Notes: a model not told the origin generated them from the letters alone. 32,000 nt of DNA from an uncultured bacterium (GCA_963704705.1 OY969931.1:1140001-1172000); one strand, 5' to 3'; positions 5,846 to 29,469 are shown, counted from the first letter of the stretch. Numbers and translations: made by a program.

Positions 5846-5959
5846 ATGAAAGTAAGATCCTCTGTTAAAAAAATATGTGATAAATGCAAAATAATTCGCC
5901 GTGACGGTGTAATTAGAGTTATATGCAAAATTAAAAAACATAAGCAGAGACAGGGATAG
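5846..5959 (+). CDS. rpmJ: 50S ribosomal protein L36
   Basis: Hand-translated 37-aa [40 protein letters not shown] with the L36 zinc ribbon pattern. It is below the ORF-track length cutoff. It lies between infA and rpsM. Confidence 0.9.
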
Positions 5960-5966
5960 ACTATCA

Positions 5967-6004
5967 ATTACTAATTACTAATTTCTAATTACTAATAACT
6001 AATT
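5967..6004 (+). repeat. r-protein operon spacer repeat, copy 2 (one extra TACTAAT unit), abutting the rpsM ATG
   Basis: ATTACTAATTACTAATTTCTAATTACTAATAACTAATT. The first 22 nt after the leading A are identical to copy 1. Confidence 0.85.
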
Positions 6005-6403: not shown

Positions 6404-6799
6404 ATGGCTACAAAAAAAGCTACAACAACTAAGAAAAAAGGTAAAAAAAGAGTAAGCCCTGAATGTAACGCTTACATACAGGCTTCATATAATAATACTA
6501 TTGTTACGATCACTGAACCAACAGGCGATACTATCGCATGGTCTTCAGCAGGTTCAAGCGGCTTTAAAGGCTCAAGAAAAGCAACTCCTTATGCTGCTCA
6601 GGTTGCTGCTGAAAATGCAGTTGAAAAAGCAAAAGCAGCAGGAATCGAAAAAGTTGCTGTATTTGTTAAAGGAGTCGGGCCTGGAAGAGAACAAGCAATA
6701 AGAGGATTAAACGCATCAGGACTTCAGATAATGGCAATCACTGATGTTACACCTGTTCCTCATAATGGTTGCCGTCAGAAAAAACAACGAAGAGTATAA
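6404..6799 (+). CDS. rpsK: 30S ribosomal protein S11
   Basis: [44 protein letters not shown] and the C-terminal [18 protein letters not shown] are S11 signatures. Confidence 0.96.
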
Positions 6800-6804
6800 C
6801 TTCA

Positions 6805-6833
6805 ATTACTAATTACTAATATCTAATAACTTA
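6805..6833 (+). repeat. r-protein operon spacer repeat, copy 3, upstream of rpsD
   Basis: ATTACTAATTACTAATATCTAATAACTTA. It has one mismatch to copy 1 over the core TTACTAATTACTAAT(T/A)TCTAATAACT. Confidence 0.85.
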
Positions 6834-6835
6834 TA

Positions 6836-7462
6836 ATGGCAAGATACACAGGACCAAAAGCAAAAATCGCACGAAGAGAAGGTTTAAGCCTTGCAGCTTT
6901 CGGTAATTACGAAGGTAGTGCATTAAAAGCTTGTCAAAAAAAGAACTATCCTCCGGGACATGCTGGTAAAAAAGGAAGTTTTTCAAAACCTTCTGAATAC
7001 TCAAAACAGCTTAGAGAAAAGCAAAAAGCTAAAAGAGTATATGGGATTTTGGAAAAACAATTCCGAAAATACTATACAAGAGCTGATAAATCTCACACAG
7101 CTACTCACAATGCTCTTCTTACACTTCTTGAAAAAAGGCTGGACAATTTTGTTTACAGAGGAGGCCTTGCAGATTCAAGAAGACAAGCAAGACAAATGGT
7201 TACTCACGGCCACTTTAAATTAAACGGAAAAAGAATCGATATTCCTTCTATTGAAGTAAAAGTAGGTGACGTGCTTGAGGTTCGTGAAAAGAATCAAAAA
7301 TCCCCTCTTTACGAAGAATTCACTAAGAGAAAACCAAATTCTCCAAAGTGGATTAAACCAGATTTAAAAGGTCTTAAACTTGAAATGTTACGTGAACCTG
7401 AATTGGAAGACCTTGAACACATTATCGACGCTCGACTTATTGTTGAGTACTACTCTAAGTAA
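6836..7462 (+). CDS. rpsD: 30S ribosomal protein S4
   Basis: MARYTGPKAKIARREG N-terminus. S4 RNA-binding domain: RLDNFVYRGGLADSRRQARQMVTHGHFKLNGKRIDIPS. Confidence 0.96.
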   Translation: MARYTGPKAKIARREGLSLAAFGNYEGSALKACQKKNYPPGHAGKKGSFSKPSEYSKQLREKQKAKRVYGILEKQFRKYYTRADKSHTATHNALLTLLEKRLDNFVYRGGLADSRRQARQMVTHGHFKLNGKRIDIPSIEVKVGDVLEVREKNQKSPLYEEFTKRKPNSPKWIKPDLKGLKLEMLREPELEDLEHIIDARLIVEYYSK

Positions 7463-9820: not shown

Positions 9821-9841
9821 CCGTCCCGGGACGGGATTTTG
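9821..9841 (+). terminator. Rho-independent terminator after rpsI
   Basis: Perfect palindrome CCGTCCCGGGACGG followed by GATTTTG. Confidence 0.7.
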
Positions 9842-12848: not shown

Positions 12849-15662
12849 ATGGAAACAAAAACAATCGAGCAAATCTATAAAGAATTAAACACATCAGCTG
12901 AAGGGCTAAGTTCTTCTGAAGCTGCTTCGCGTATTGAAAAATATGGTAAAAACGAACTTAAAACAAAAAAGAAAACACCATGGTGGGTTGCGTTTTTAAA
13001 GGAATTTGCAGATTTAATGGTAATTATCCTTATAATTGCCGCTGTTTTTGCTTATTTTGCAGGTGATACAAGAGACGCAGTAGTGATCTTCTTTATAGTA
13101 CTTTTAAATGCAATTATAGGCTACATTCAGGAATATAAAGCTGAAAAAGCAATTGAAGCACTTAAAAAAATGATGGCTCCAAATGCAAGAGTGATAAGAG
13201 GAGGCAAAGAAATTGAGATTAATGCCAAACTTCTAGTTCCGGGTGACATTATTGTTCTTCAGGAAGGGGACAAAATAACTGCCGATGCCAGAGTTATTGA
13301 AGAAAATGAGCTTGAAACACAGGAAGCAACTCTTACAGGCGAATCGACTCCGGTTTCAAAGCATTCAGAGCCCGGCGACCCATCAAACTTAATTTACATG
13401 GGAACAGATGTGGCTCATGGAAGCGGTAAAGCGGTTGTTATTAGTACTGGAATGCAAACCAAGTTCGGAAACATAGCAAAGCTAACTACTCAGACAAAAA
13501 AAGATAAAACCCCTCTTGAAAAAGAATTATTCAAACTTGGTATGTTCGTTGGAAAAATCACTTTGGTAATTTCAGCCATACTTATAGCGGTTGGTATTTT
13601 TATTCAGGGGCAAGACATTATATATGCATTTATATTTGCTGCTTCTGTTGCCGTTGCTGCAGTGCCTGAAGGTCTGCCTGCCACTGTAACCATAGCACTT
13701 GCATTTGGTGTTCAGCGTCTGGCTAAGAAAAAAAGTATTATCAGGCAGCTTTCATCGGTAGAAACTTTAGGTTCAACAACACATATTTGTACAGATAAAA
13801 CAGGCACGCTCACAAAAAATGAAATGACTGTTAAAAAAGTATATTTAAATGAATATGATGCACAGGTTGGCGGAGTGGGTTATATGCCATGGGGAGCGGT
13901 TCTGTTTAAATCAAAAACAAAACATCATTTTTTAATTGGTGATATTGATTCGCAGGAAGAGGAATTTGAAAAGAGAAAAACACAACTTGAAAAAATAAAA
14001 GCAGATGAAAAATCACTTTATGATTCACTTGAGATGTTGGGTACGATTTGCAATCTTTGTAATAATGCAGCACTTACACCTGAAGAGAATGAAAATCATG
14101 AAAGGGTTTATACAATGCTTGGAGATCCCACTGAAGGCGCACTTCTTACATTTGCTCAAAAAATAGGATTTAATCCTGATGAAACAAAAGAGAAATATAA
14201 AAAACTTCATGAGCTGGCTTTTGATTCGGATAGAAAAAGAATGAGTGTGATTATGAAAGATAATAAAACAGAGAAAAATTATGTATTCACAAAGGGCGCT
14301 CCGGATGCGCTTTTGGAAATTTCCAAAAAGATTATGATTAATGGAAGGATTATTAATCTGGATGAAGAAACAAAGAAAAAAATCCTTGAGAAAAATGAAA
14401 ACATGGCAAAACAGGCTTTAAGGGTGATTGGCTTTGCTTATAAAGAAATAGAAAATAAAGATCATTTTTCAATTAAAGAAGACGAGAGTGATTTGGTTTT
14501 TGTAGGATTGGTGGGAATGATTGATCCGCCAAGACGCGATATTAAAAGAGCCATTGTTCTGGCAAAAAAAGCCGGAATTAAAGTTTATATTGTAACCGGA
14601 GATCAGGGTCTTACTGCTGAAGCTATAGCAAAACAAATAGGTCTTGTTAATCATGGAGGCCATGAAATAATAACAGGCAAAGACCTCGCTGCAATGAAAG
14701 ACGAAGATCTGATAAAGATTTTTAAAGATCAGGAAAAAGAAGTTATTTTTGCAAGAACTTCGCCTGAAGACAAGCTTAGAATTGTTTCTTTATTAAAGAG
14801 CTTAGACCATGTTGTTGCTGTGACAGGTGACGGAGTAAATGACGCTCCTGCACTTAAACGTGCTGACATAGGTATTGCGATGGGTTTAACTGGAACAGAT
14901 GTTTCAAAAGAAGCATCTAATATGATACTTGCGGATGACAGCTTCTCAACAATAATTACCGCTGTTCAGGAAGGCCGCACGATTTATGAAAACCTTAAAA
15001 AATTCGTATTCTATATATTTAGTTGTAACACAGGTGAATTGATAGTTGTATTTAGTGCGGTTGTTTTTGCAATACCGGCACCTTTAACTGCAATTCTTAT
15101 TTTATGTGTTGATCTTGGAACAGATGTATTACCTGCGCTTGCGTTGGGTGTTGATCCTCCTGAAAAAGGCATTATGGAACTGCCGCCGCGTAGTCCAAAA
15201 GCTAAGATTATGGATCGCGCATTTATAGGCAGATTCCTTTATTTGGGATTATTCATTGGAGCAATTGTGGTTGGAACATACTTCTGGTCGCTATTTGAAC
15301 AGGGATGGCACTGGGGTGAGCCTCTTGCTGTAACAGATACAATGCATATAAAATCTTCAACATTTGCATTTGCGATTCTGGTATTAATTCAGATGGTTAA
15401 TGCTTATAACTCAAGAAGTTCAGTTAGATCGGTTTTTCAGATGGGATTCTTTAATAATTTATGGCTCTTGGGTTCTGTGGCTATTTCAGTTGCAACGGTT
15501 TACATGCTCGTTGAAGTACCTTTCTTTAATACATGGATTCACACTGCACCACTTGCATGGTATGAATGGCTTGTAATTATAGTCGGCTCATTCGCAATAC
15601 TGGTGGTTGAAGAAATACGTAAATTGGTGGTACGATTACGCATGCGTACAGTTAAATCATAA
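12849..15662 (+). CDS. P-type II (SERCA-like) cation-transporting ATPase, probably Ca2+
   Basis: Motifs include TGES, ICTDKTGTLT (phosphorylation site), TGDGVNDAPALK, the M4 motif PEGLP, M5 NTGE and M6 DLGTD. They resemble the Ca2+-site residues of P2A ATPases. Confidence 0.93.
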   Translation: METKTIEQIYKELNTSAEGLSSSEAASRIEKYGKNELKTKKKTPWWVAFLKEFADLMVIILIIAAVFAYFAGDTRDAVVIFFIVLLNAIIGYIQEYKAEKAIEALKKMMAPNARVIRGGKEIEINAKLLVPGDIIVLQEGDKITADARVIEENELETQEATLTGESTPVSKHSEPGDPSNLIYMGTDVAHGSGKAVVISTGMQTKFGNIAKLTTQTKKDKTPLEKELFKLGMFVGKITLVISAILIAVGIFIQGQDIIYAFIFAASVAVAAVPEGLPATVTIALAFGVQRLAKKKSIIRQLSSVETLGSTTHICTDKTGTLTKNEMTVKKVYLNEYDAQVGGVGYMPWGAVLFKSKTKHHFLIGDIDSQEEEFEKRKTQLEKIKADEKSLYDSLEMLGTICNLCNNAALTPEENENHERVYTMLGDPTEGALLTFAQKIGFNPDETKEKYKKLHELAFDSDRKRMSVIMKDNKTEKNYVFTKGAPDALLEISKKIMINGRIINLDEETKKKILEKNENMAKQALRVIGFAYKEIENKDHFSIKEDESDLVFVGLVGMIDPPRRDIKRAIVLAKKAGIKVYIVTGDQGLTAEAIAKQIGLVNHGGHEIITGKDLAAMKDEDLIKIFKDQEKEVIFARTSPEDKLRIVSLLKSLDHVVAVTGDGVNDAPALKRADIGIAMGLTGTDVSKEASNMILADDSFSTIITAVQEGRTIYENLKKFVFYIFSCNTGELIVVFSAVVFAIPAPLTAILILCVDLGTDVLPALALGVDPPEKGIMELPPRSPKAKIMDRAFIGRFLYLGLFIGAIVVGTYFWSLFEQGWHWGEPLAVTDTMHIKSSTFAFAILVLIQMVNAYNSRSSVRSVFQMGFFNNLWLLGSVAISVATVYMLVEVPFFNTWIHTAPLAWYEWLVIIVGSFAILVVEEIRKLVVRLRMRTVKS

Positions 15663-19565: not shown

Positions 19566-20482
19566 AATTTTACGGTTCCGATTATTTCAGAGGCGTCCTT
19601 AACGCCGTTTTTGTCGCACCAGTCAGACATTTCTTGCGCAACCTTTCTAAAAACATCAGCGCCGCGGTAAAACACAGCTGAGCCGATTCCAACAAGTGTT
19701 GCGCCAGCCATCATAATTTCAAGCGCGTCTAAGCCTGTTGTTATTCCGCCTGTTCCTATTATTGGGAGTTTTGTTGCCTGATAAATGTCACTCACTTTTT
19801 TAACTGCGAGCGGTTTGATTGCGGGTCCGCTAATTCCGCCGACTTTGTTTGCTAAAATTGGCATTCTTGTTTCAAGATTTATTGCGAGTCCCGGGCCTAA
19901 AGTATTGATTGCACAAAATCCGTCCGCACCGCCTTCTGCGCATGCGTTAGCTATTTCTACAATGTTGGTCACGTTCGGACTAAGCTTAATTATAACCGGT
20001 TTGTTCTTTGCTACTTTTTTAACTTCTTGTGTTACTTGTTTTGCATCCATTGCAACACATGCAAAAGGCAGCCCGAGTTCATCTTCAACATTCGGACAAG
20101 AAATATTCACCTCGATAATATCCACATCAAGTTTATCAATCTCCTGCGCAATCTTTGAAAATTCATCTTTTTTGCCTGCCATAATGTTAGCAATTAATGG
20201 TGCAGGTTTATTTTTTGAATAAAGTGCGATCTCTTCTTTGGCTTTTTCTATACCCGCATCAGGAGCTCCAACCGCATTCATCATCCAGTGTTCTGTTGTT
20301 ATAATTGTTGGATTCGGATGGCCAATGTGTTCGTTAAGCCAGATTGATTTTGTTGTGATTCCGCCTGCACCACTGTTCACCACACTTTTCCATGTTGATG
20401 CGGTCACGCCTAAAACGCCTGAAGCTAGAACCGTTGGGTTCACAAATTCAGTTCCAAGATATTTTACTTTAAGGTTGGCCAT
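19562..20482 (-). CDS. pyrD: Dihydroorotate dehydrogenase, class 1B catalytic subunit
   Basis: Motifs include FVNPTVLASG, NISCPN, GGISGPAIKP and GTGGI. It is paired with pyrK. Confidence 0.93.
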   Translation of the reverse strand: MANLKVKYLGTEFVNPTVLASGVLGVTASTWKSVVNSGAGGITTKSIWLNEHIGHPNPTIITTEHWMMNAVGAPDAGIEKAKEEIALYSKNKPAPLIANIMAGKKDEFSKIAQEIDKLDVDIIEVNISCPNVEDELGLPFACVAMDAKQVTQEVKKVAKNKPVIIKLSPNVTNIVEIANACAEGGADGFCAINTLGPGLAINLETRMPILANKVGGISGPAIKPLAVKKVSDIYQATKLPIIGTGGITTGLDALEIMMAGATLVGIGSAVFYRGADVFRKVAQEMSDWCDKNGVKDASEIIGTVKL

Positions 20483-20488
20483 TTGGTT

Positions 20489-20494
20489 AATTTA
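20489..20494 (-). promoter_or_regulatory. -10-like TAAATT, 6 nt before the pyrD ATG
   Basis: Read directly. It would let pyrDKEF be expressed independently of the inserted cassette. Confidence 0.35.
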
Positions 20495-20588
20495 GGGTCC
20501 TTCAGAGACGCAAGTCTCTAGCGAGCAAAAACATATCGCGAGCTTAGCATGAGTCCCGCTAAGCGGGATGAATTCCTTTAATATTTAA

Positions 20589-20633
20589 TCATAAAAGTAG
20601 GAGGCTGACTAGGAAAAGATTTAAGTGTTTCAT
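20589..20633 (-). CDS. Possible 14-aa hydrophobic micro-ORF (MKHLNLFLVSLLLL)
   Basis: Hand translation. GGAGGG lies 5 nt upstream of the ATG. The ORF is very short, so it is only tentative. Confidence 0.25.
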   Translation of the reverse strand: MKHLNLFLVSLLLL

Positions 20634-20643
20634 ATTTGCCCTC

Positions 20644-20781
20644 CTACTTGATGATCCCATACACGATGAGTCCCAGAAGCACTATGCAGAAGACTATAAG
20701 TCTGATGTACAGCCATACTGCTTCGGCATCTTCGATCGCCTTGAGTTCCTCAGGTGTCGGGTTCTCAAACATTTTAAACAC
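20644..20781 (-). CDS. 45-aa single-TM micro-protein (GTG start; 42 aa if ATG at 20772)
   Basis: Hand translation (M)FKMFENPTPEELKAIEDAEAVWLYIRLIVFCIVLLGLIVYGIIK. AGGAGG at 20789-20794 lies 7 nt before the GTG. It is below the ORF-track cutoff. Confidence 0.5.
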   Translation of the reverse strand: MFKMFENPTPEELKAIEDAEAVWLYIRLIVFCIVLLGLIVYGIIK

Positions 20782-20818
20782 TTCGGTTCCTCCTTTCTAG
20801 TCAGCCGTTAGCTGACGT

Positions 20819-20962
20819 TCAAGCGAACAAAACAACGAGATCTGCAACTGCAAGCGCAAAAGCACCATGAACCATGTAGTTCGGATTGCTAAGCGCAACA
20901 ATAGCAGCCCCAAATCCGACAACAAATGCTCCAACGCAAAGTGCTGCCATAAGTTTAGACAA
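20819..20962 (-). CDS. 47-aa two-TM micro-protein (TTG start; 43 aa if ATG at 20950)
   Basis: It is the C-terminal part of the track's 106-aa ORF. AGGGGGG lies 5 nt before the TTG. Sequence: (M)SKLMAALCVGAFVVGFGAAIVALSNPNYMVHGAFALAVADLVVLFA. Confidence 0.45.
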   Translation of the reverse strand: MSKLMAALCVGAFVVGFGAAIVALSNPNYMVHGAFALAVADLVVLFA

Positions 20963-20985
20963 TTTTGCCCCCCTTTTTACAATAT

Positions 20986-21102
20986 CTAGCTCAGGTTGAT
21001 GTTTTGGTAGATGCAGAACCCCACGAACAGAGCCTCTGTTCCTACCATGAAAGCAAAAATCAAAACGTCCCAATGCTTTTGGATCCACTTGCGAGTCGTC
21101 AT
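20986..21102 (-). CDS. 38-aa single-TM micro-protein
   Basis: Verified codon by codon as MTTRKWIQKHWDVLIFAFMVGTEALFVGFCIYQNINLS. GGAGGG at 21110-21115 lies 7 nt before the ATG. It is in a different frame from the track's 106-aa ORF. Confidence 0.5.
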   Translation of the reverse strand: MTTRKWIQKHWDVLIFAFMVGTEALFVGFCIYQNINLS

Positions 21103-21122
21103 TCTGTGTCCCTCCGTTTAAC

Positions 21123-21148
21123 GCCAGCCCTGTTTTCAAAGGACCAGC
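21123..21148 (-). promoter_or_regulatory. Conserved 5'-leader hairpin, copy A (minus strand GCTGGTCCT-TTGAAAAC-AGGGCTGGC), upstream of the 38-aa ORF
   Basis: 26-nt element paralogous to 21685-21710. The stem is kept through G-U wobbles that work only on the minus-strand RNA. Confidence 0.55.
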
Positions 21149-21284
21149 ACTAAAACACTTTGTTTGAAGGTTTGTAGCGCAAAAAACCCTTTAAGGTGAG
21201 TATAGTAAAGTATTTAAAATTTTAAAACAAGTTTTTATTTGGGAATTCGGCTGGCGGGGTTGTTGTGCCGAATTGGAAGGATTC

Positions 21285-21527
21285 TCATGACTTTGGCTTT
21301 AGTGCGATGATGAGAAGATAGATCATGAGACCTATCAATCCCAATGCACAAAGCGATGCACATATTCCGAAAATGATCGAACCCAGAGCAAAGGGCTTGC
21401 CTCCGGCCACGAAACGGTCGGCATCACAGCATGAGAGCATGAGAAGAAAGGTGAGAAGCCCGATGCATGCAAACAGCATCAGTGCTTTTTTGATGGGAGA
21501 GGGCTCGTAAGGTTCAAGTTTCTTCAT
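21285..21527 (-). CDS. 80-aa two-TM micro-protein
   Basis: ORF-track entry with hydrophobic segments ALMLFACIGLLTFLLML and LGSIIFGICASLCALGLIGLMIYLLIIAL. The ATG overlaps the stop of the upstream 46-aa ORF (ATGA). AAGGAA lies upstream. Confidence 0.6.
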   Translation of the reverse strand: MKKLEPYEPSPIKKALMLFACIGLLTFLLMLSCCDADRFVAGGKPFALGSIIFGICASLCALGLIGLMIYLLIIALKPKS

Positions 21528-21664
21528 GGTTTCCTTTCATGTAAGTTTACGTTGCAGCTTGGGGCCTTTAAATCTCCTCTTTCGAGTGAAACCGAGAATC
21601 CCAAGGCCAGCATCAGTGCCATCAGCACGAATGCGAACAACACGAACGCGTTACTTCCCTTCAC
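21524..21664 (-). CDS. 46-aa N-terminally hydrophobic micro-protein (GTG start)
   Basis: Verified codon by codon as (M)KGSNAFVLFAFVLMALMLALGFSVSLERGDLKAPSCNVNLHERKP. GGAGGA at 21671-21676 lies 6 nt before the GTG. It is translationally coupled to the 80-aa ORF. Confidence 0.5.
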   Translation of the reverse strand: MKGSNAFVLFAFVLMALMLALGFSVSLERGDLKAPSCNVNLHERKP

Positions 21665-21684
21665 TTTTTGTCCTCCAATTTTCC

Positions 21685-21710
21685 GCCAGCCTGATTTTCA
21701 AAGGTCTGGC
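21685..21710 (-). promoter_or_regulatory. Conserved 5'-leader hairpin, copy B (minus strand GCCAGACCT-TTGAAAATC-AGGCTGGC), upstream of the 46-aa ORF
   Basis: It has the same position relative to the SD/start as copy A. Confidence 0.55.
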
Positions 21711-21782
21711 TAAATCTGCTTGTTTTGCGATTCTAACCTAATCCTTTGGAAAAGAATTAAAGCACAGGGTAAACAAATTTGC

Positions 21783-21809
21783 AAATAGTCAAATTTTCCC
21801 CGGGGAAAA
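21783..21809. repeat. 27-nt exact repeat AAATAGTCAAATTTTCCCCGGGGAAAA, copy 1, abutting the pyrC stop codon; likely the pyrBC terminator
   Basis: It contains the 16-bp perfect palindrome TTTTCCCCGGGGAAAA. On the minus strand this is followed by TTTGACTATTT. It is identical to 29052-29078. Confidence 0.9.
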
Positions 21810-23117
21810 CTATAATGAAACCTCGGCACCCTTCAAATCTCCTGAATTTACTATCTTGCCATCTTTCATTCCCAATATACCATTAACAAATGTCATTACT
21901 GGCCAGCCTTTGAGCTTTCGGCCATTGTACGGTGACCATCCGCATTTGGTATAAAGCTCAGAATTCTTGACCTCACGCATCAAATTCATATCAACAACAG
22001 TTAAATCAGCGTCATAACCTGCTTTAATTTGCCCCTTTTTCTTTAAACCGAATAATTCAGCAGGTTTTCTGCTCAACAATTCAACAACATGTTTTAATTC
22101 AATTTTCTCATCATTAACAGCATTAAGCATTAAAGCCAGCGTAGTATCAAGTTCGGGAATTCCTGATGGAGCTTCAATATAAGGTTTTTCTTTCTCTTTT
22201 TTCAGATGCGGAGCATGATCCGACGCTATTATTGTAATTATTCCGTCATTTAATGCCTTCCACAAAACATCTTGATCGTGCTGGCCGCGCACAGGCGGAT
22301 TAACTTTAATAAAATTTCCTAGCCTGACATAATCGCGAATCGCCAAAAATAAATGGTGCGGAGCAACTTCGCATGTAATTTTTTTGCTGCCGAATTTACG
22401 CATTAAGCCAACTTCTTTTTTAGTGCTCATGTGGCAAAGATGCAATCTGCCCTCTGTTTTTTTTGCAATGTGTATTGCTTTTTTTGCTGCCTCAAAAGCT
22501 ATTTCGTCGCTGCGAATTAAGCTGTGCACTTCAGGTGTGTTGTCGCCTTTATATGTATCAGCGTGTTTTTTCATCAGACTTTCATCTTCAGCATGAATCG
22601 CAACAATACGCTCTGTTGAATTAAGCATTTTTTCCAAAACTTCAGATGACTTTTCTATACCGTCCTTAATTTGAATTCCTGTTGTTGCACCCATATAAAC
22701 TTTATATCCAACAATACCTTCAGCTTTCATACACTCATCAAAGTTGTCAGGCCCTGCTCCAAAAAACAAACCATAATTCACCAAAGCCTTCTTGCTAATA
22801 ATCGCGCGTTTTGCCTCAAGCGCCTTAACTGTTGTTGTTGGAGGTTTTGTATTAGGCATGTCAAAAACAGTTGTGAAACCTCCTGCTAAAGCTGCCTTTG
22901 AACCTGTTGTCCAGTCCTCCTTTTCTTCGTTACCAGGTGTTCTAAAATGAACATGAGCGTCAATACAGCCCGGAATCAAATATTTACCTGTTAAATTATA
23001 TTCTTTATCAGCTTTCACATTAATTGTTTCTGCAACCTTTTCGATTACTGCGCCGTTCACAAGCACATCTTTGGTTGTTCCGTCAGCTAATTTTGCATTT
23101 TTGAATAGGGTTTTCAT
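21810..23117 (-). CDS. pyrC: Dihydroorotase
   Basis: Amidohydrolase metal motif CIDAHVHFRTPG, then HLCHMST and ASDHAPH. ATGA overlap with pyrB. Confidence 0.93.
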   Translation of the reverse strand: MKTLFKNAKLADGTTKDVLVNGAVIEKVAETINVKADKEYNLTGKYLIPGCIDAHVHFRTPGNEEKEDWTTGSKAALAGGFTTVFDMPNTKPPTTTVKALEAKRAIISKKALVNYGLFFGAGPDNFDECMKAEGIVGYKVYMGATTGIQIKDGIEKSSEVLEKMLNSTERIVAIHAEDESLMKKHADTYKGDNTPEVHSLIRSDEIAFEAAKKAIHIAKKTEGRLHLCHMSTKKEVGLMRKFGSKKITCEVAPHHLFLAIRDYVRLGNFIKVNPPVRGQHDQDVLWKALNDGIITIIASDHAPHLKKEKEKPYIEAPSGIPELDTTLALMLNAVNDEKIELKHVVELLSRKPAELFGLKKKGQIKAGYDADLTVVDMNLMREVKNSELYTKCGWSPYNGRKLKGWPVMTFVNGILGMKDGKIVNSGDLKGAEVSL

Positions 23118-27932: not shown

Positions 27933-27959
27933 AAAAAAACCCGCCACAAGTGACGGGTT
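27933..27959 (-). terminator. Rho-independent terminator (minus strand AACCCGTCAC-TT-GTGGCGGGTT + T7)
   Basis: The stem has about 9 bp including one G-U and is followed by seven U. It works only on the minus strand. It sits upstream of the next minus-strand gene, so it ends a separate transcript. Confidence 0.7.
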
Positions 27960-28380
27960 AAATCTTATCAACTGTCTAATTAAAGAAGTTCAAGATTTGT
28001 TTTTGTTTTAAACGTGACGAGCGCCATACTTTGCTTAAGCTTCGGAGTGAATTTAAAGTCTTTCCAGGGACTGTCCGTTTGATGCGGTTATCTACAGAGG
28101 CAATAAAGCGCTCTGGAAACCACCGGACTAAGGGGCCTTTCTAAGGCATGGGCCGATTAAGTTGTCGTCTTTTCGGCCATCGCTTCAGCAGAGAAGGAGA
28201 GAGGTTGAAACAATTTCGAGGCTTTTCTAGGGCGTGTACATTTTTTTGATGTAAGGGCTCGAGTGGTCATTAGTGACCGTACGTTTCAACACCTCATCTT
28301 TTTCTGCTTTTTATTTTTGATTTTTTAAGGGTCGATTTGATTTCTGTTTTTGTGTTTTTTTGTTTTTGATTTTTGAAATC
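27933..28380 (-). ncRNA. Candidate structured RNA of unknown family (~450 nt): A-tract-rich 5' part plus a GC-richer ~290-nt core
   Basis: It is bounded by a consensus promoter (28386-28414) and an intrinsic terminator (27933-27959), both on the minus strand. Stops occur in all six frames. The core (about 28015-28300) is visibly GC-richer than its surroundings. Long-range complementary pairs include GAGGTGTTGAAAC/GTTTCAACCTC and GAGCGC/GCGCTC, with several local hairpins. Confidence 0.5.
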
Positions 28381-28385
28381 ATGTC

Positions 28386-28414
28386 ATTGTATGAAATTGA
28401 ACGAGATTTGTCAA
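28386..28414 (-). promoter_or_regulatory. Near-perfect sigma70-type promoter TTGACA-N17-TACAAT
   Basis: The hexamers and the 17-nt spacer were counted base by base. It fires leftward into the non-coding region. Confidence 0.7.
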
Positions 28415-28671
28415 AAATATAGGTAGGACATGTGTGGGAAATATGTTTTAGTTTTTTGAGTACAAGCTGACTTAGATGGCTTGGAAAAGGATGTTGGCGC
28501 GATTGCAGGCCTCTATATTCAAGCTGTATTTTTATCTAATTTTAATTTTTGGATGGAGTGCTATTTAGGTGAGTATCCGTACACCATTTATCTCAAAAAG
28601 TCCAGTTAAAATGCTGGAAATTGCTTTGCAATTTTAGTATTATTTAAGTGCGAATATTAACAAATACAAAT

Positions 28672-29469
28672 ATGACTGATAAAGAGTTATTTAAATTATG
28701 TCAGGAGTATGGCGCAAAAGCACGCATGTGGAAGAACAAATTTATTGCCTTGCTTCCGGAGGTGTATAAAAGGCGATTGTATAAAAAGCGCGGTTATGGA
28801 TCGATTTTTGAGTTTGCTGCAAAGCTTGGAGGAGTTAGTAAAAATGTAGTTGAAGATGTTTTGCGATTGGATGTGCAATTTGAAGATAAACCAAAACTTA
28901 AAGCTTTAATTCCAGAAATTGGTGTGAGCAAGTTAAAAACTATTGCTTCTGTTGCAAGCATTGAAACAGAAAATCTTTGGGCTAAAAAAATCCAAACAAT
29001 GTCCAGGGCAGCAATAGAAACAGAAATTAGAGATCAAAAAAATAATGTAGAAAATAGTCAAATTTTCCCCGGGGAAAATTTTGAAACATTCACTGCGAAG
29101 CTTTCTCCAAGAACAATCCAAAGACTAAAAATCATTAAAGTTAAAATGGGGCAAGGCACAACATGGGAAGAAGTTTTTTGTAAGCTTGCGGGCCTTGCGA
29201 CCCCTGAGCCAAAACGCGAATACAAGCAGAGGCCAAGCAAATCGCGGGCCGTGCCTGCCAAACAAAAACGAGAACTTCCTGAAATTTGCGAAATTCCCGG
29301 CTGCAACAAGCCGGCCGAAGAAATCCATCATAAAAAACCATGGGCAATATTTAAAAAACACGACAAGCTTAAAGCTCTGTGCAAAGCCCATCATGAGCTT
29401 GAACATCAGGGCGACACAGTGATCGACAAAAAATATAGGGCCTATAAATGGCAGGCCGCATTATTATGA
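28672..29469 (+). CDS. HNH endonuclease with DUF222-like helical N-terminal domain
   Basis: C-terminal HNH/zinc motif CEIPGCNKPAEEIHHKKPW...LCKAHHELEH. The N-terminal pattern (YKRRLYKKRGYGSIFEFAAKLGGVSKNVVEDVLRL...LIPEIGVSKLKTI) resembles DUF222-HNH proteins. The track start at 28648 is GTG, so the ATG at 28672 is preferred. Confidence 0.85.
   Translation: MTDKELFKLCQEYGAKARMWKNKFIALLPEVYKRRLYKKRGYGSIFEFAAKLGGVSKNVVEDVLRLDVQFEDKPKLKALIPEIGVSKLKTIASVASIETENLWAKKIQTMSRAAIETEIRDQKNNVENSQIFPGENFETFTAKLSPRTIQRLKIIKVKMGQGTTWEEVFCKLAGLATPEPKREYKQRPSKSRAVPAKQKRELPEICEIPGCNKPAEEIHHKKPWAIFKKHDKLKALCKAHHELEHQGDTVIDKKYRAYKWQAALL
29052..29078. repeat. 27-nt exact repeat, copy 2, inside the HNH ORF (encodes NSQIFPGE)
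   Basis: Identical to 21783-21809. The palindrome is followed by TTTTG on the plus strand, giving an intragenic terminator-like hairpin. Confidence 0.9.

Follow-up and report, generated by a model that had tools for sequence, protein, structure and literature searches.

The 27-nt sequence AAATAGTCAAATTTTCCCCGGGGAAAA is present twice on the plus strand, without a single mismatch, in the 32-kb stretch of DNA analysed here (the window), which belongs to a low-GC (37%) Patescibacteria genome. One copy directly follows the stop codon of pyrC, the other lies inside a gene of an HNH nuclease-like family. The HNH copy is the original and the pyrC copy is derived. On balance we favour the view that the latter is a recent, one-off scar, i.e. 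that a deletion of about 250 nt was filled with sequence from the neighbouring HNH gene. Read in this way, the locus would represent a clean natural case, from a streamlined and uncultivated bacterium, of a templated patch spanning a deletion. The 27-mer by itself amounts to a small scar. The more significant finding is the family-wide palindrome in the linker of the HNH genes from which it derives, which yields a testable hypothesis for how multi-copy nuclease genes recognise DNA and spread. The features discussed are collected in Table 1.

Table 1. Features of the window referred to in the text, with positions counted from its first nucleotide.
Feature	Position	Strand	Remark
Intergenic palindrome CCGTCCCGGGACGG, followed by GATTTTG	9821..9834		CCCGGG-centred; -8.6 kcal/mol
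pyrC-pyrD spacer	20483..21782	-	about 5 small membrane-peptide ORFs; ancestral
Derived (ectopic) 27-mer copy	21783..21809	+	directly after the pyrC stop; missing at the orthologous site in L031, L032 and L033
AAATAG, probable junction microhomology	21783..21788	+	native to the locus, also in the HNH donor
Non-native filler TCAAATTTTCCCCGGGGAAAA, 21 nt	21789..21809	+	in place of the 248-250-nt segment of L033/L032
16-nt perfect palindrome TTTTCCCCGGGGAAAA	21794..21809		hairpin of -3.4 to -3.9 kcal/mol
pyrC (dihydroorotase)	21810..23117	-	amidohydrolase family match; C-terminus intact compared with relatives
Conserved upstream element and TGGTATAAT-type promoter	28565..28671	+	marks where homology to other HNH loci starts on the left
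HNH-family gene, encoding P0001 (265 aa from MTDKEL)	28672..29469	+	the source genome has at least 5 paralogues, this one included
Donor (ancestral) 27-mer copy	29052..29078	+	in the HNH gene; encodes NSQIFPGE in the linker
22-nt perfect palindrome, centre CCCGGG at 29068-29073	29060..29081		longest among the 8 HNH genes with DNA

The two copies and the junction behind pyrC

An earlier note on this DNA had described an exact repeat in the same orientation, which it considered to be beyond chance and flanked by diverging sequence. These observations are borne out: 100 dinucleotide-preserving shuffles produced no 27-mer match, the window holds no third copy even if up to 3 mismatches are allowed, and local alignments of the 60-nt and 150-nt flanks of both copies score no better than shuffles, which rules out a larger, decayed duplication. 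The note had also placed one copy flush against the pyrC stop codon, whose complement CTA indeed occupies positions 21810-21812, and the other inside an HNH ORF, where we find it translated in frame as (E)NSQIFPGE(N). The 16-bp palindrome reported there is perfect, and in the HNH gene it extends to 22 nt. Among GTDB species genomes, the 19-mer AAATTTTCCCCGGGGAAAA has 23 matches, all with unrelated flanks; the 21-mer TCAAATTTTCCCCGGGGAAAA has 4 matches in JGI metagenomes, likewise with unrelated flanks, and none in IMG/VR. The AAATAG arm accompanies none of the matches to these 19- and 21-nt cores. Rfam searches at gathering and permissive thresholds as well as tRNA and tmRNA scans returned nothing relevant. 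A different repeat of the window is a 52-nt A+T-rich sequence containing CAATTACTAATTACTAATTTCTAAT, whose three copies (231-282, 5948-5999 and 6786-6837) are 79-81% identical and lie between genes in the first 7 kb.

The minus strand carries, in this order, pyrB, pyrC, the 1.3-kb spacer, pyrD, pyrK, pyrE and pyrF. On its right, pyrB is followed by an ORF, ugd, carA and a PEMT-like gene; after about 0.7 kb of non-coding DNA come the HNH gene and then a DnaQ-DinG gene. The 7.2 kb separating the two copies accordingly hold pyrC, pyrB, the ORF, ugd, carA and the PEMT-like gene, plus half of the HNH gene. In homologues of the HNH gene in other Patescibacteria, the corresponding codons are AAATAGTCAAAAAATCCCCGGGGAT; at L029, L030 and L034, with about 50% protein identity, they read AA(T/C) AGT CAA AAA (A/T)TC CCC GGG GAT. 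Since HNH homologues of other genomes have the motif at the same codons, the 27-mer is native to the HNH gene and the pyrC copy is the derived one. The contig that encodes one of the homologues, P0007, also has a pyrC locus, and the motif is missing from the latter. Within the source genome itself, four other paralogues were found, and NSQIFPGEN is encoded by none of them.

At the pyrC end of the spacer, three relatives were compared, with pyrC identities of 89% (L033), 88% (L031) and 82% (L032), and in none of them is pyrC followed by the 27-mer. The distance from the pyrC stop to CTAATTGCAAATT is 248 nt in L033 and about 250 nt in L032, compared with 21 nt in the window. The segment present in these two relatives comprises a leader and the gene of a 28-aa membrane peptide, and no copy of it exists elsewhere in the window. 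L031 shows a different, simple deletion at the pyrC junction. Parsimony over the four sequences, rather than a tree, polarises the difference as a deletion in the window and not an insertion in L033 and L032. In pyrC sense, the window junction reads TTTTCCCCGGGGAAAATTTGA (21 nt) followed by CTATTTGCAAATT. AATTTGCAAATAG of the window and AATTTGCAATTAG of L033 are identical at 12 of 13 positions, AAATAG itself being matched at 5 of 6; this homology could be assessed at one junction, the left one.

The earlier note had described the spacer as a GC-rich cassette, possibly mobilised through a recombination or insertion junction. The spacer is richer in G+C than the window, though only modestly so (0.41-0.53 in 100-nt windows vs 0.37, with pyrC and pyrD at 0.40-0.45). 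Two parts of it, 20595-21260 and 21424-21724, are 81-82% identical to L033, the pyrC DNA showing 79%. The nearest relative has the spacer in the same gene order and with about 81% identity, and it is therefore ancestral and not a mobilised insert. What remains of the former proposal is that the pyrC copy lies exactly on a rearrangement junction; the event itself, however, appears to be a deletion of about 250 nt with a templated filler.

The gap between pyrC and pyrD is variable in this lineage (window 20483-21782 vs L031:4540-7824 and L032:5876-14361). It measures 1.3 kb in the window and 8.5 kb in L032, where it encodes a toxin-antitoxin pair, a kinase and a protein of 1429 aa; L031 has a kinase there as well. 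Each small membrane-peptide gene of the gap is preceded by a conserved leader, i.e. (GCCAGA)CCTTTGAAAATCAGGCTGGCGG, about 10 nt, GGAGG and the start codon, found in the window at 21661-21704 and 21099-21142 (minus strand) and in the relatives at L031:4616, 5121 and 7269, L032:5963 and 6207, and L033:1921 and 2183. This leader can form a stem (GCCAG..CTGGC), has no Rfam match and may be a cis-regulatory element. The gap of L032 further contains an inverted repeat pair of 136 nt (L032:11005-11140 and 14166-14301; 90% complementary), with the 20-nt palindrome ATTCATGCCCGGGCATGAAT in each arm. The pair flanks a 3-kb segment encoding a Ser/Thr kinase and a ParE/RHH toxin-antitoxin pair, with which it could form an invertible or transposon-like unit.

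According to the reading favoured here, the sequence directly downstream of the pyrC stop, with the peptide gene and its leader, would have been lost in this lineage, and a short patch copied from the HNH gene, which lies on the same strand at a distance of 7.27 kb, would have closed the gap. Of the 27 bases 21 would then be foreign, and AAATAG, present in both places, probably provided the microhomology for a template switch. Such a switch may have occurred by microhomology-primed template switching in replication or by synthesis-dependent end joining. The donor would be the CCCGGG-centred 22-nt palindrome together with its upstream AGTCAAA arm, a motif that is conserved throughout the family of HNH genes. 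Because long perfect palindromes stall replication forks and fold back, the donor stretch would be a likely template-switch partner. The patch ends exactly where the 16-nt palindrome ends, and a nascent strand folding back and leaving its template would fit this end. Both the enzymology and the palindrome as the cause of the switch are what we infer from this arrangement. A second, independent intergenic spacer containing a fragment of an HNH linker is found at L001:20436-20582 (see below).

A palindrome maintained at the DNA level in the HNH family

The protein P0001 is composed of a helical HTH-like N-terminal domain, a disordered linker, a small helical domain and a Cys/His-containing, HNH-like C-terminus. 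In the latter, C206, C211, H220, C237, H240 and H241 are invariant in the family and H219 nearly so, and the predicted model shows a beta-beta-alpha region. A word-indexed search returned 166 family matches and an exhaustive search 655 clusters at E<=1e-30; some homologues are labelled 'HNH endonuclease signature motif containing protein' by NCBI. P0001 itself matches no Pfam or NCBIfam entry even at E up to 1-10, DUF222 included (E up to 10), and no PDB entry by sequence. The AlphaFold model reaches a pLDDT of 90.9 overall, and the linker, which holds a Pro-Gly (PG) dipeptide, is its sole low-confidence stretch (about 59). The best PDB match in Foldseek is 6y93_B, the DNA-binding domain of Noc on its binding site NBS (ATTTCCCGGGAAAT; PMC7383237), a weak match (E 0.87, probability 0.77, TM 0.55 on the target). 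An hhalign comparison of P0001 with an approximate Spo0J sequence found nothing.

The HNH genes are mobile and multi-copy, with at least 5 per genome and differing neighbourhoods in relatives. Upstream of the HNH genes of the window, L001, L030 and L034 lies an element of about 45 nt (GGTGAGTAT..GTACACCATTTATCTCAAAAAGTCCAGTT.AAA) followed by the TGGTATAAT-type promoter. With about 90% conservation, it surpasses the coding sequence of the HNH genes, with which it travels. Further upstream in the window, about 600 nt of non-coding DNA (27960-28565) contain G+C-rich, structured-looking stretches; apart from the terminator hairpin at 27938-27959, Rfam has no match in this region. Between the HNH genes of the window (28702-29440) and of L001 (10001-10819), DNA identity is mosaic: the N-terminal part reaches 84%, the stretch between about 28882 and 29078 has 53-61%, and from 4 nt past the 27-mer onwards the value is 87-88%. 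The palindrome is positioned at the edge of a hypervariable segment of the gene.

The linker PG is nearly invariant in the closest 20 homologues, while only about half of the family members have it. In all 8 HNH genes whose DNA was read (window 29068-29073, L001:10379, L029:6454, L030:5149, L034:5409, L036:10379, L038:5346 and L040:10418) it is encoded by CCC GGG, although in the window CCC accounts for 8.7% of the Pro and GGG for 7.7% of the Gly codons. Other PG dipeptides are encoded by CCCGGG in 2 of 28 instances. Moreover, the codons flanking PG are reverse complementary in 7 of the 8 genes (TTC/GAA, GAT/ATC, ATC/GAT twice, CAT/ATG, CGT/ACG and CTG/CAG), and the pairs CAT/ATG, CGT/ACG and CTG/CAG had been predicted from the protein before the DNA was read. 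On the protein level, 61 of 75 PG homologues carry a flanking residue pair compatible with reverse-complement codons, compared with 13.6 ± 3.2 expected by permutation (maximum 28 in 5000 trials). If each pair type is counted only once, 17 of 26 are compatible (4.3 ± 1.8 expected), and among independent representatives, taken from 150 with at most 50% mutual identity, the ratio is 49 of 63 (16.2 ± 3.1). The two protein sets together contain at least 22 different residue-pair types. For the second-layer codons at -2/+2 there is a slight excess only (26 of 61 vs 18.5 ± 2.7).

The palindrome is therefore maintained at the DNA level within a disordered linker. PG sits in the low-confidence linker of a model that is confident elsewhere, and so its invariance has no evident cause in the protein fold. 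What fixes the rare codons CCC GGG and constrains their neighbours is thus selection, or a mutational mechanism, at work on the DNA and not on the protein. These 'invariant residues' of the HNH family are a DNA signal, which calls for caution on the side of annotators. A role as a hairpin, in RNA or in single-stranded DNA, is unconvincing for most members, a 12-nt palindrome giving a 4-bp stem of -2.7 to -4.9 kcal/mol. The palindrome could be the HNH protein's own binding site. Self-recognition of this kind, comparable to parS inside parB, would account for outer bases that vary from gene to gene while keeping their symmetry. Otherwise, palindromes might be perfected by a mutational process, or a different factor might recognise them.

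CCCGGG palindromes outside the HNH genes and rival readings

In the 172.8 kb of Patescibacteria loci surveyed (the window, L001, L029-L034, L036, L038 and L040), 17 of 26 CCCGGG sites lie in palindromes of at least 10 nt and 14 of 26 in palindromes of at least 12 nt, compared with 7.5% and 2.3%, respectively, for the other 63 six-base palindromic cores. This class, which we write NNNCCCGGGNNN, comprises in-gene as well as extragenic members, 7 of the 14 palindromes of at least 12 nt being located outside HNH genes. The 12-nt core CGTCCCGGGACG of the palindrome at 9821-9834 is the only palindromic way to encode R-PG-T, and R-PG-T is the linker of the paralogues P0003 and P0023 of the source genome, as judged from their protein sequences; TTCCCCGGGGAA is the arm-swapped counterpart of this core. 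At L038:233, AGTCAAATTT is followed by TTTCGTCCCGGGACGAAA, whose 12-nt core is shared with the HNH gene at a distance of 5 kb. A 24-nt palindrome, AAAAGTGTGCCCGGGCACACTTTT, is found at L040:2302-2325. Alignment scores for HNH remnants around the extragenic palindromes (two in L032, window 9825, L038:233 and L040:2314) are all at null level. The palindromes are not conserved across relatives, those of L032 being missing from L031. A genuine remnant does exist at L001:20436-20582, where 147 nt, the whole spacer of two convergent genes, are a relic of the HNH central region (Smith-Waterman score 93 vs a null of 43 ± 4.6). The relic agrees with the P0027 gene at 21 of 21 positions in its core, AGTCAAAAATTCCCCGGGGAT, and at 60-65% of those in its flanks. 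Also in L001, the AMMECR1 gene holds an 18-nt perfect palindrome, ATCCGTCCCGGGACGGAT (19815-19832), which encodes IRPGTD and shares its 12-nt core with the R-PG-T HNH genes, and about 9 nearly perfect tandem copies of the 18-nt unit ATTACCAGGTAATGTGGG (2275-2449) lie upstream of a gene for a large SLH-like protein.

As CCCGGG palindromes are over-represented outside the HNH genes too, the pyrC copy may be a functional site rather than a neutral scar. In this case the palindrome would be bound, and possibly cut, by the HNH protein, and the pyrC copy would be a working extragenic target, at which the nuclease, for example, starts recombination or deletion or blocks transcription. This proposal concerns the role of the copy and is compatible with a templated origin; we regard it as conceivable but unlikely. 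It is in line with the rare codons of the linker, with their symmetric neighbours, with the location of PG in the low-confidence linker and with the non-coding relic of L001, whose core is intact between decayed flanks. Furthermore, extragenic palindromes match the local HNH types, as seen for the 12-mer with its AGTCAAATTT arm at L038:233 and for R-PG-T at 9821-9834, and the best fold match is a domain bound to a CCCGGG-centred site. Binding and cleavage by the HNH protein are, however, putative, the fold match is weak and comes with no sequence link to ParB/Noc, the extragenic palindromes are unconserved, only about half of the family has the PG, and the ectopic palindrome has 16 and not 22 nt. 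A more specific version, which we put forward tentatively and consider unlikely, would assign to the linker DNA of each family gene its own CCCGGG palindromic target with co-varying outer bases, recognised by the encoded protein through its ParB/Noc-like domain and HNH motif, so that the extragenic copies (the pyrC 27-mer, 9821-9834 and L038:233) are working sites of the matching paralogue. If true, these genes would encode a selfish nuclease with its recognition site in its own coding sequence, which seeds recombination, deletion or its own spread.

The remaining readings concern the origin or the nature of the repeat. An HNH gene might once have stood between pyrC and the peptide genes, deletions on both sides having left 27 nt. 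The mobility and copy number of these genes and the clear relic in L001 speak for this, but an insertion and two deletions, flush with the intact pyrC stop and with native sequence, would be needed, and the identity of 27/27 without flank homology differs from the roughly 140 nt of decayed homology at the L001 relic. None of the three relatives has an HNH remnant at the locus. Requiring these flush events and leaving no flank homology, this scenario is less parsimonious than a templated patch, and we consider it quite unlikely. The duplicated terminator module suggested by the earlier note fares worse, and it is very unlikely that the copy is retained to end pyrC transcription. In pyrC sense a hairpin does begin at the first base past the stop codon and leads into a U-rich tract (UUUUCCCCGGGGAAAA-UUUGACUAUUU), and other CCCGGG palindromes with T-runs are terminator-like (9821-9834 with -8.6 and the L032 pair with -11.7 kcal/mol). 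Its stability of -3.9 kcal/mol with 2 G-C pairs is nevertheless poor compared with -12.3 kcal/mol for the canonical terminator at 27938-27959, the terminator scan did not call it, and its folding z-score is 0.23. In the relatives, pyrC has no terminator and runs straight into the peptide genes, and the L040 palindrome cannot be a terminator because it lies between two divergent gene starts. A REP- or MITE-like palindromic repeat scattered through the genome, which the earlier note had named as the finding that would undo its own readings, is highly improbable. A palindrome with an asymmetric arm at the 3' end of a gene resembles REP elements, and CCCGGG palindromes are common in these genomes, also within the 136-nt inverted pair of L032; against this, the window contains two copies only, the GTDB, JGI metagenome and IMG/VR scans gave unrelated matches, and one copy is ancestral coding sequence. 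Finally, an exact direct repeat with abruptly unrelated flanks recalls the attL and attR sites that flank an element after its integration by a site-specific recombinase. This reading, to which we assign hardly any probability, is contradicted by the lack of a recombinase or integrase among the housekeeping genes separating the copies and by the order from ugd to pyrC, which is kept in L031 and L032, neither of which has the repeat. Excision would, moreover, destroy the pyr cluster and the HNH gene.

Comparison with known systems

The preferred reading, a deletion bridged by a templated patch, has its counterpart in the templated fillers at deletion junctions that result from MMEJ with synthesis or from the short-range template switches of FoSTeS/MMBIR (reviewed in PMC12426944 and PMC7954356). 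Here too, a non-native patch at a deletion junction equals sequence elsewhere on the same molecule, probably with a few shared bases at the join: it is absent at the orthologous site in the three relatives, native sequence has, by parsimony, been lost, and an identical native donor exists at 29052-29078. The known cases are, however, mainly eukaryotic, whereas here a Patescibacteria genome is concerned, the donor is located at a distance of 7.3 kb, and the patch, a perfect palindrome, stops at the palindrome edge. To our knowledge, templated fillers are poorly documented in bacteria. Template switching associated with quasipalindromes or hairpins has reportedly been described in bacteria by Ripley and by Lovett. 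It shares with our case the palindromic sequence as template-switch partner; the classical events are intramolecular, within one quasipalindrome, whereas here sequence would have been transferred to a locus kilobases away.

For the HNH genes themselves, the REP13E12 / DUF222-HNH repeat genes of mycobacteria, which are integration targets of phiRv1, offer a parallel. They, too, are multi-copy, apparently selfish HNH genes with an internal recombination target, but in the present family no DUF222 or HNH Pfam match and no phage or integrase is found. High-copy REP/BIME elements and the Rickettsia palindromic elements, which insert in frame into genes, likewise feature a short palindrome that is translated in a protein and also occurs between genes. 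The in-gene palindrome of the HNH family differs from these in being ancestral, at one fixed position and accompanied by flank covariation.

An analogy for the linker palindrome is offered by the ParB family. In B. subtilis, parS is found inside the spo0J/parB gene, just as the site considered here lies inside the gene of its candidate binding protein. In both ParB-parS and Noc-NBS, the protein is an HTH dimer and its site a palindrome of 14-16 bp. Like NBS, the HNH palindromes are centred on CCCGGG with A/T-rich arms, and the Noc domain bound to NBS is the best, albeit weak, PDB fold match of P0001. P0001 nevertheless shows no sequence similarity to ParB and Noc. It lacks a CTPase and a ParB N-terminal domain and carries an HNH-like nuclease motif at its end, and the outer bases of its palindrome vary from gene to gene within the family.
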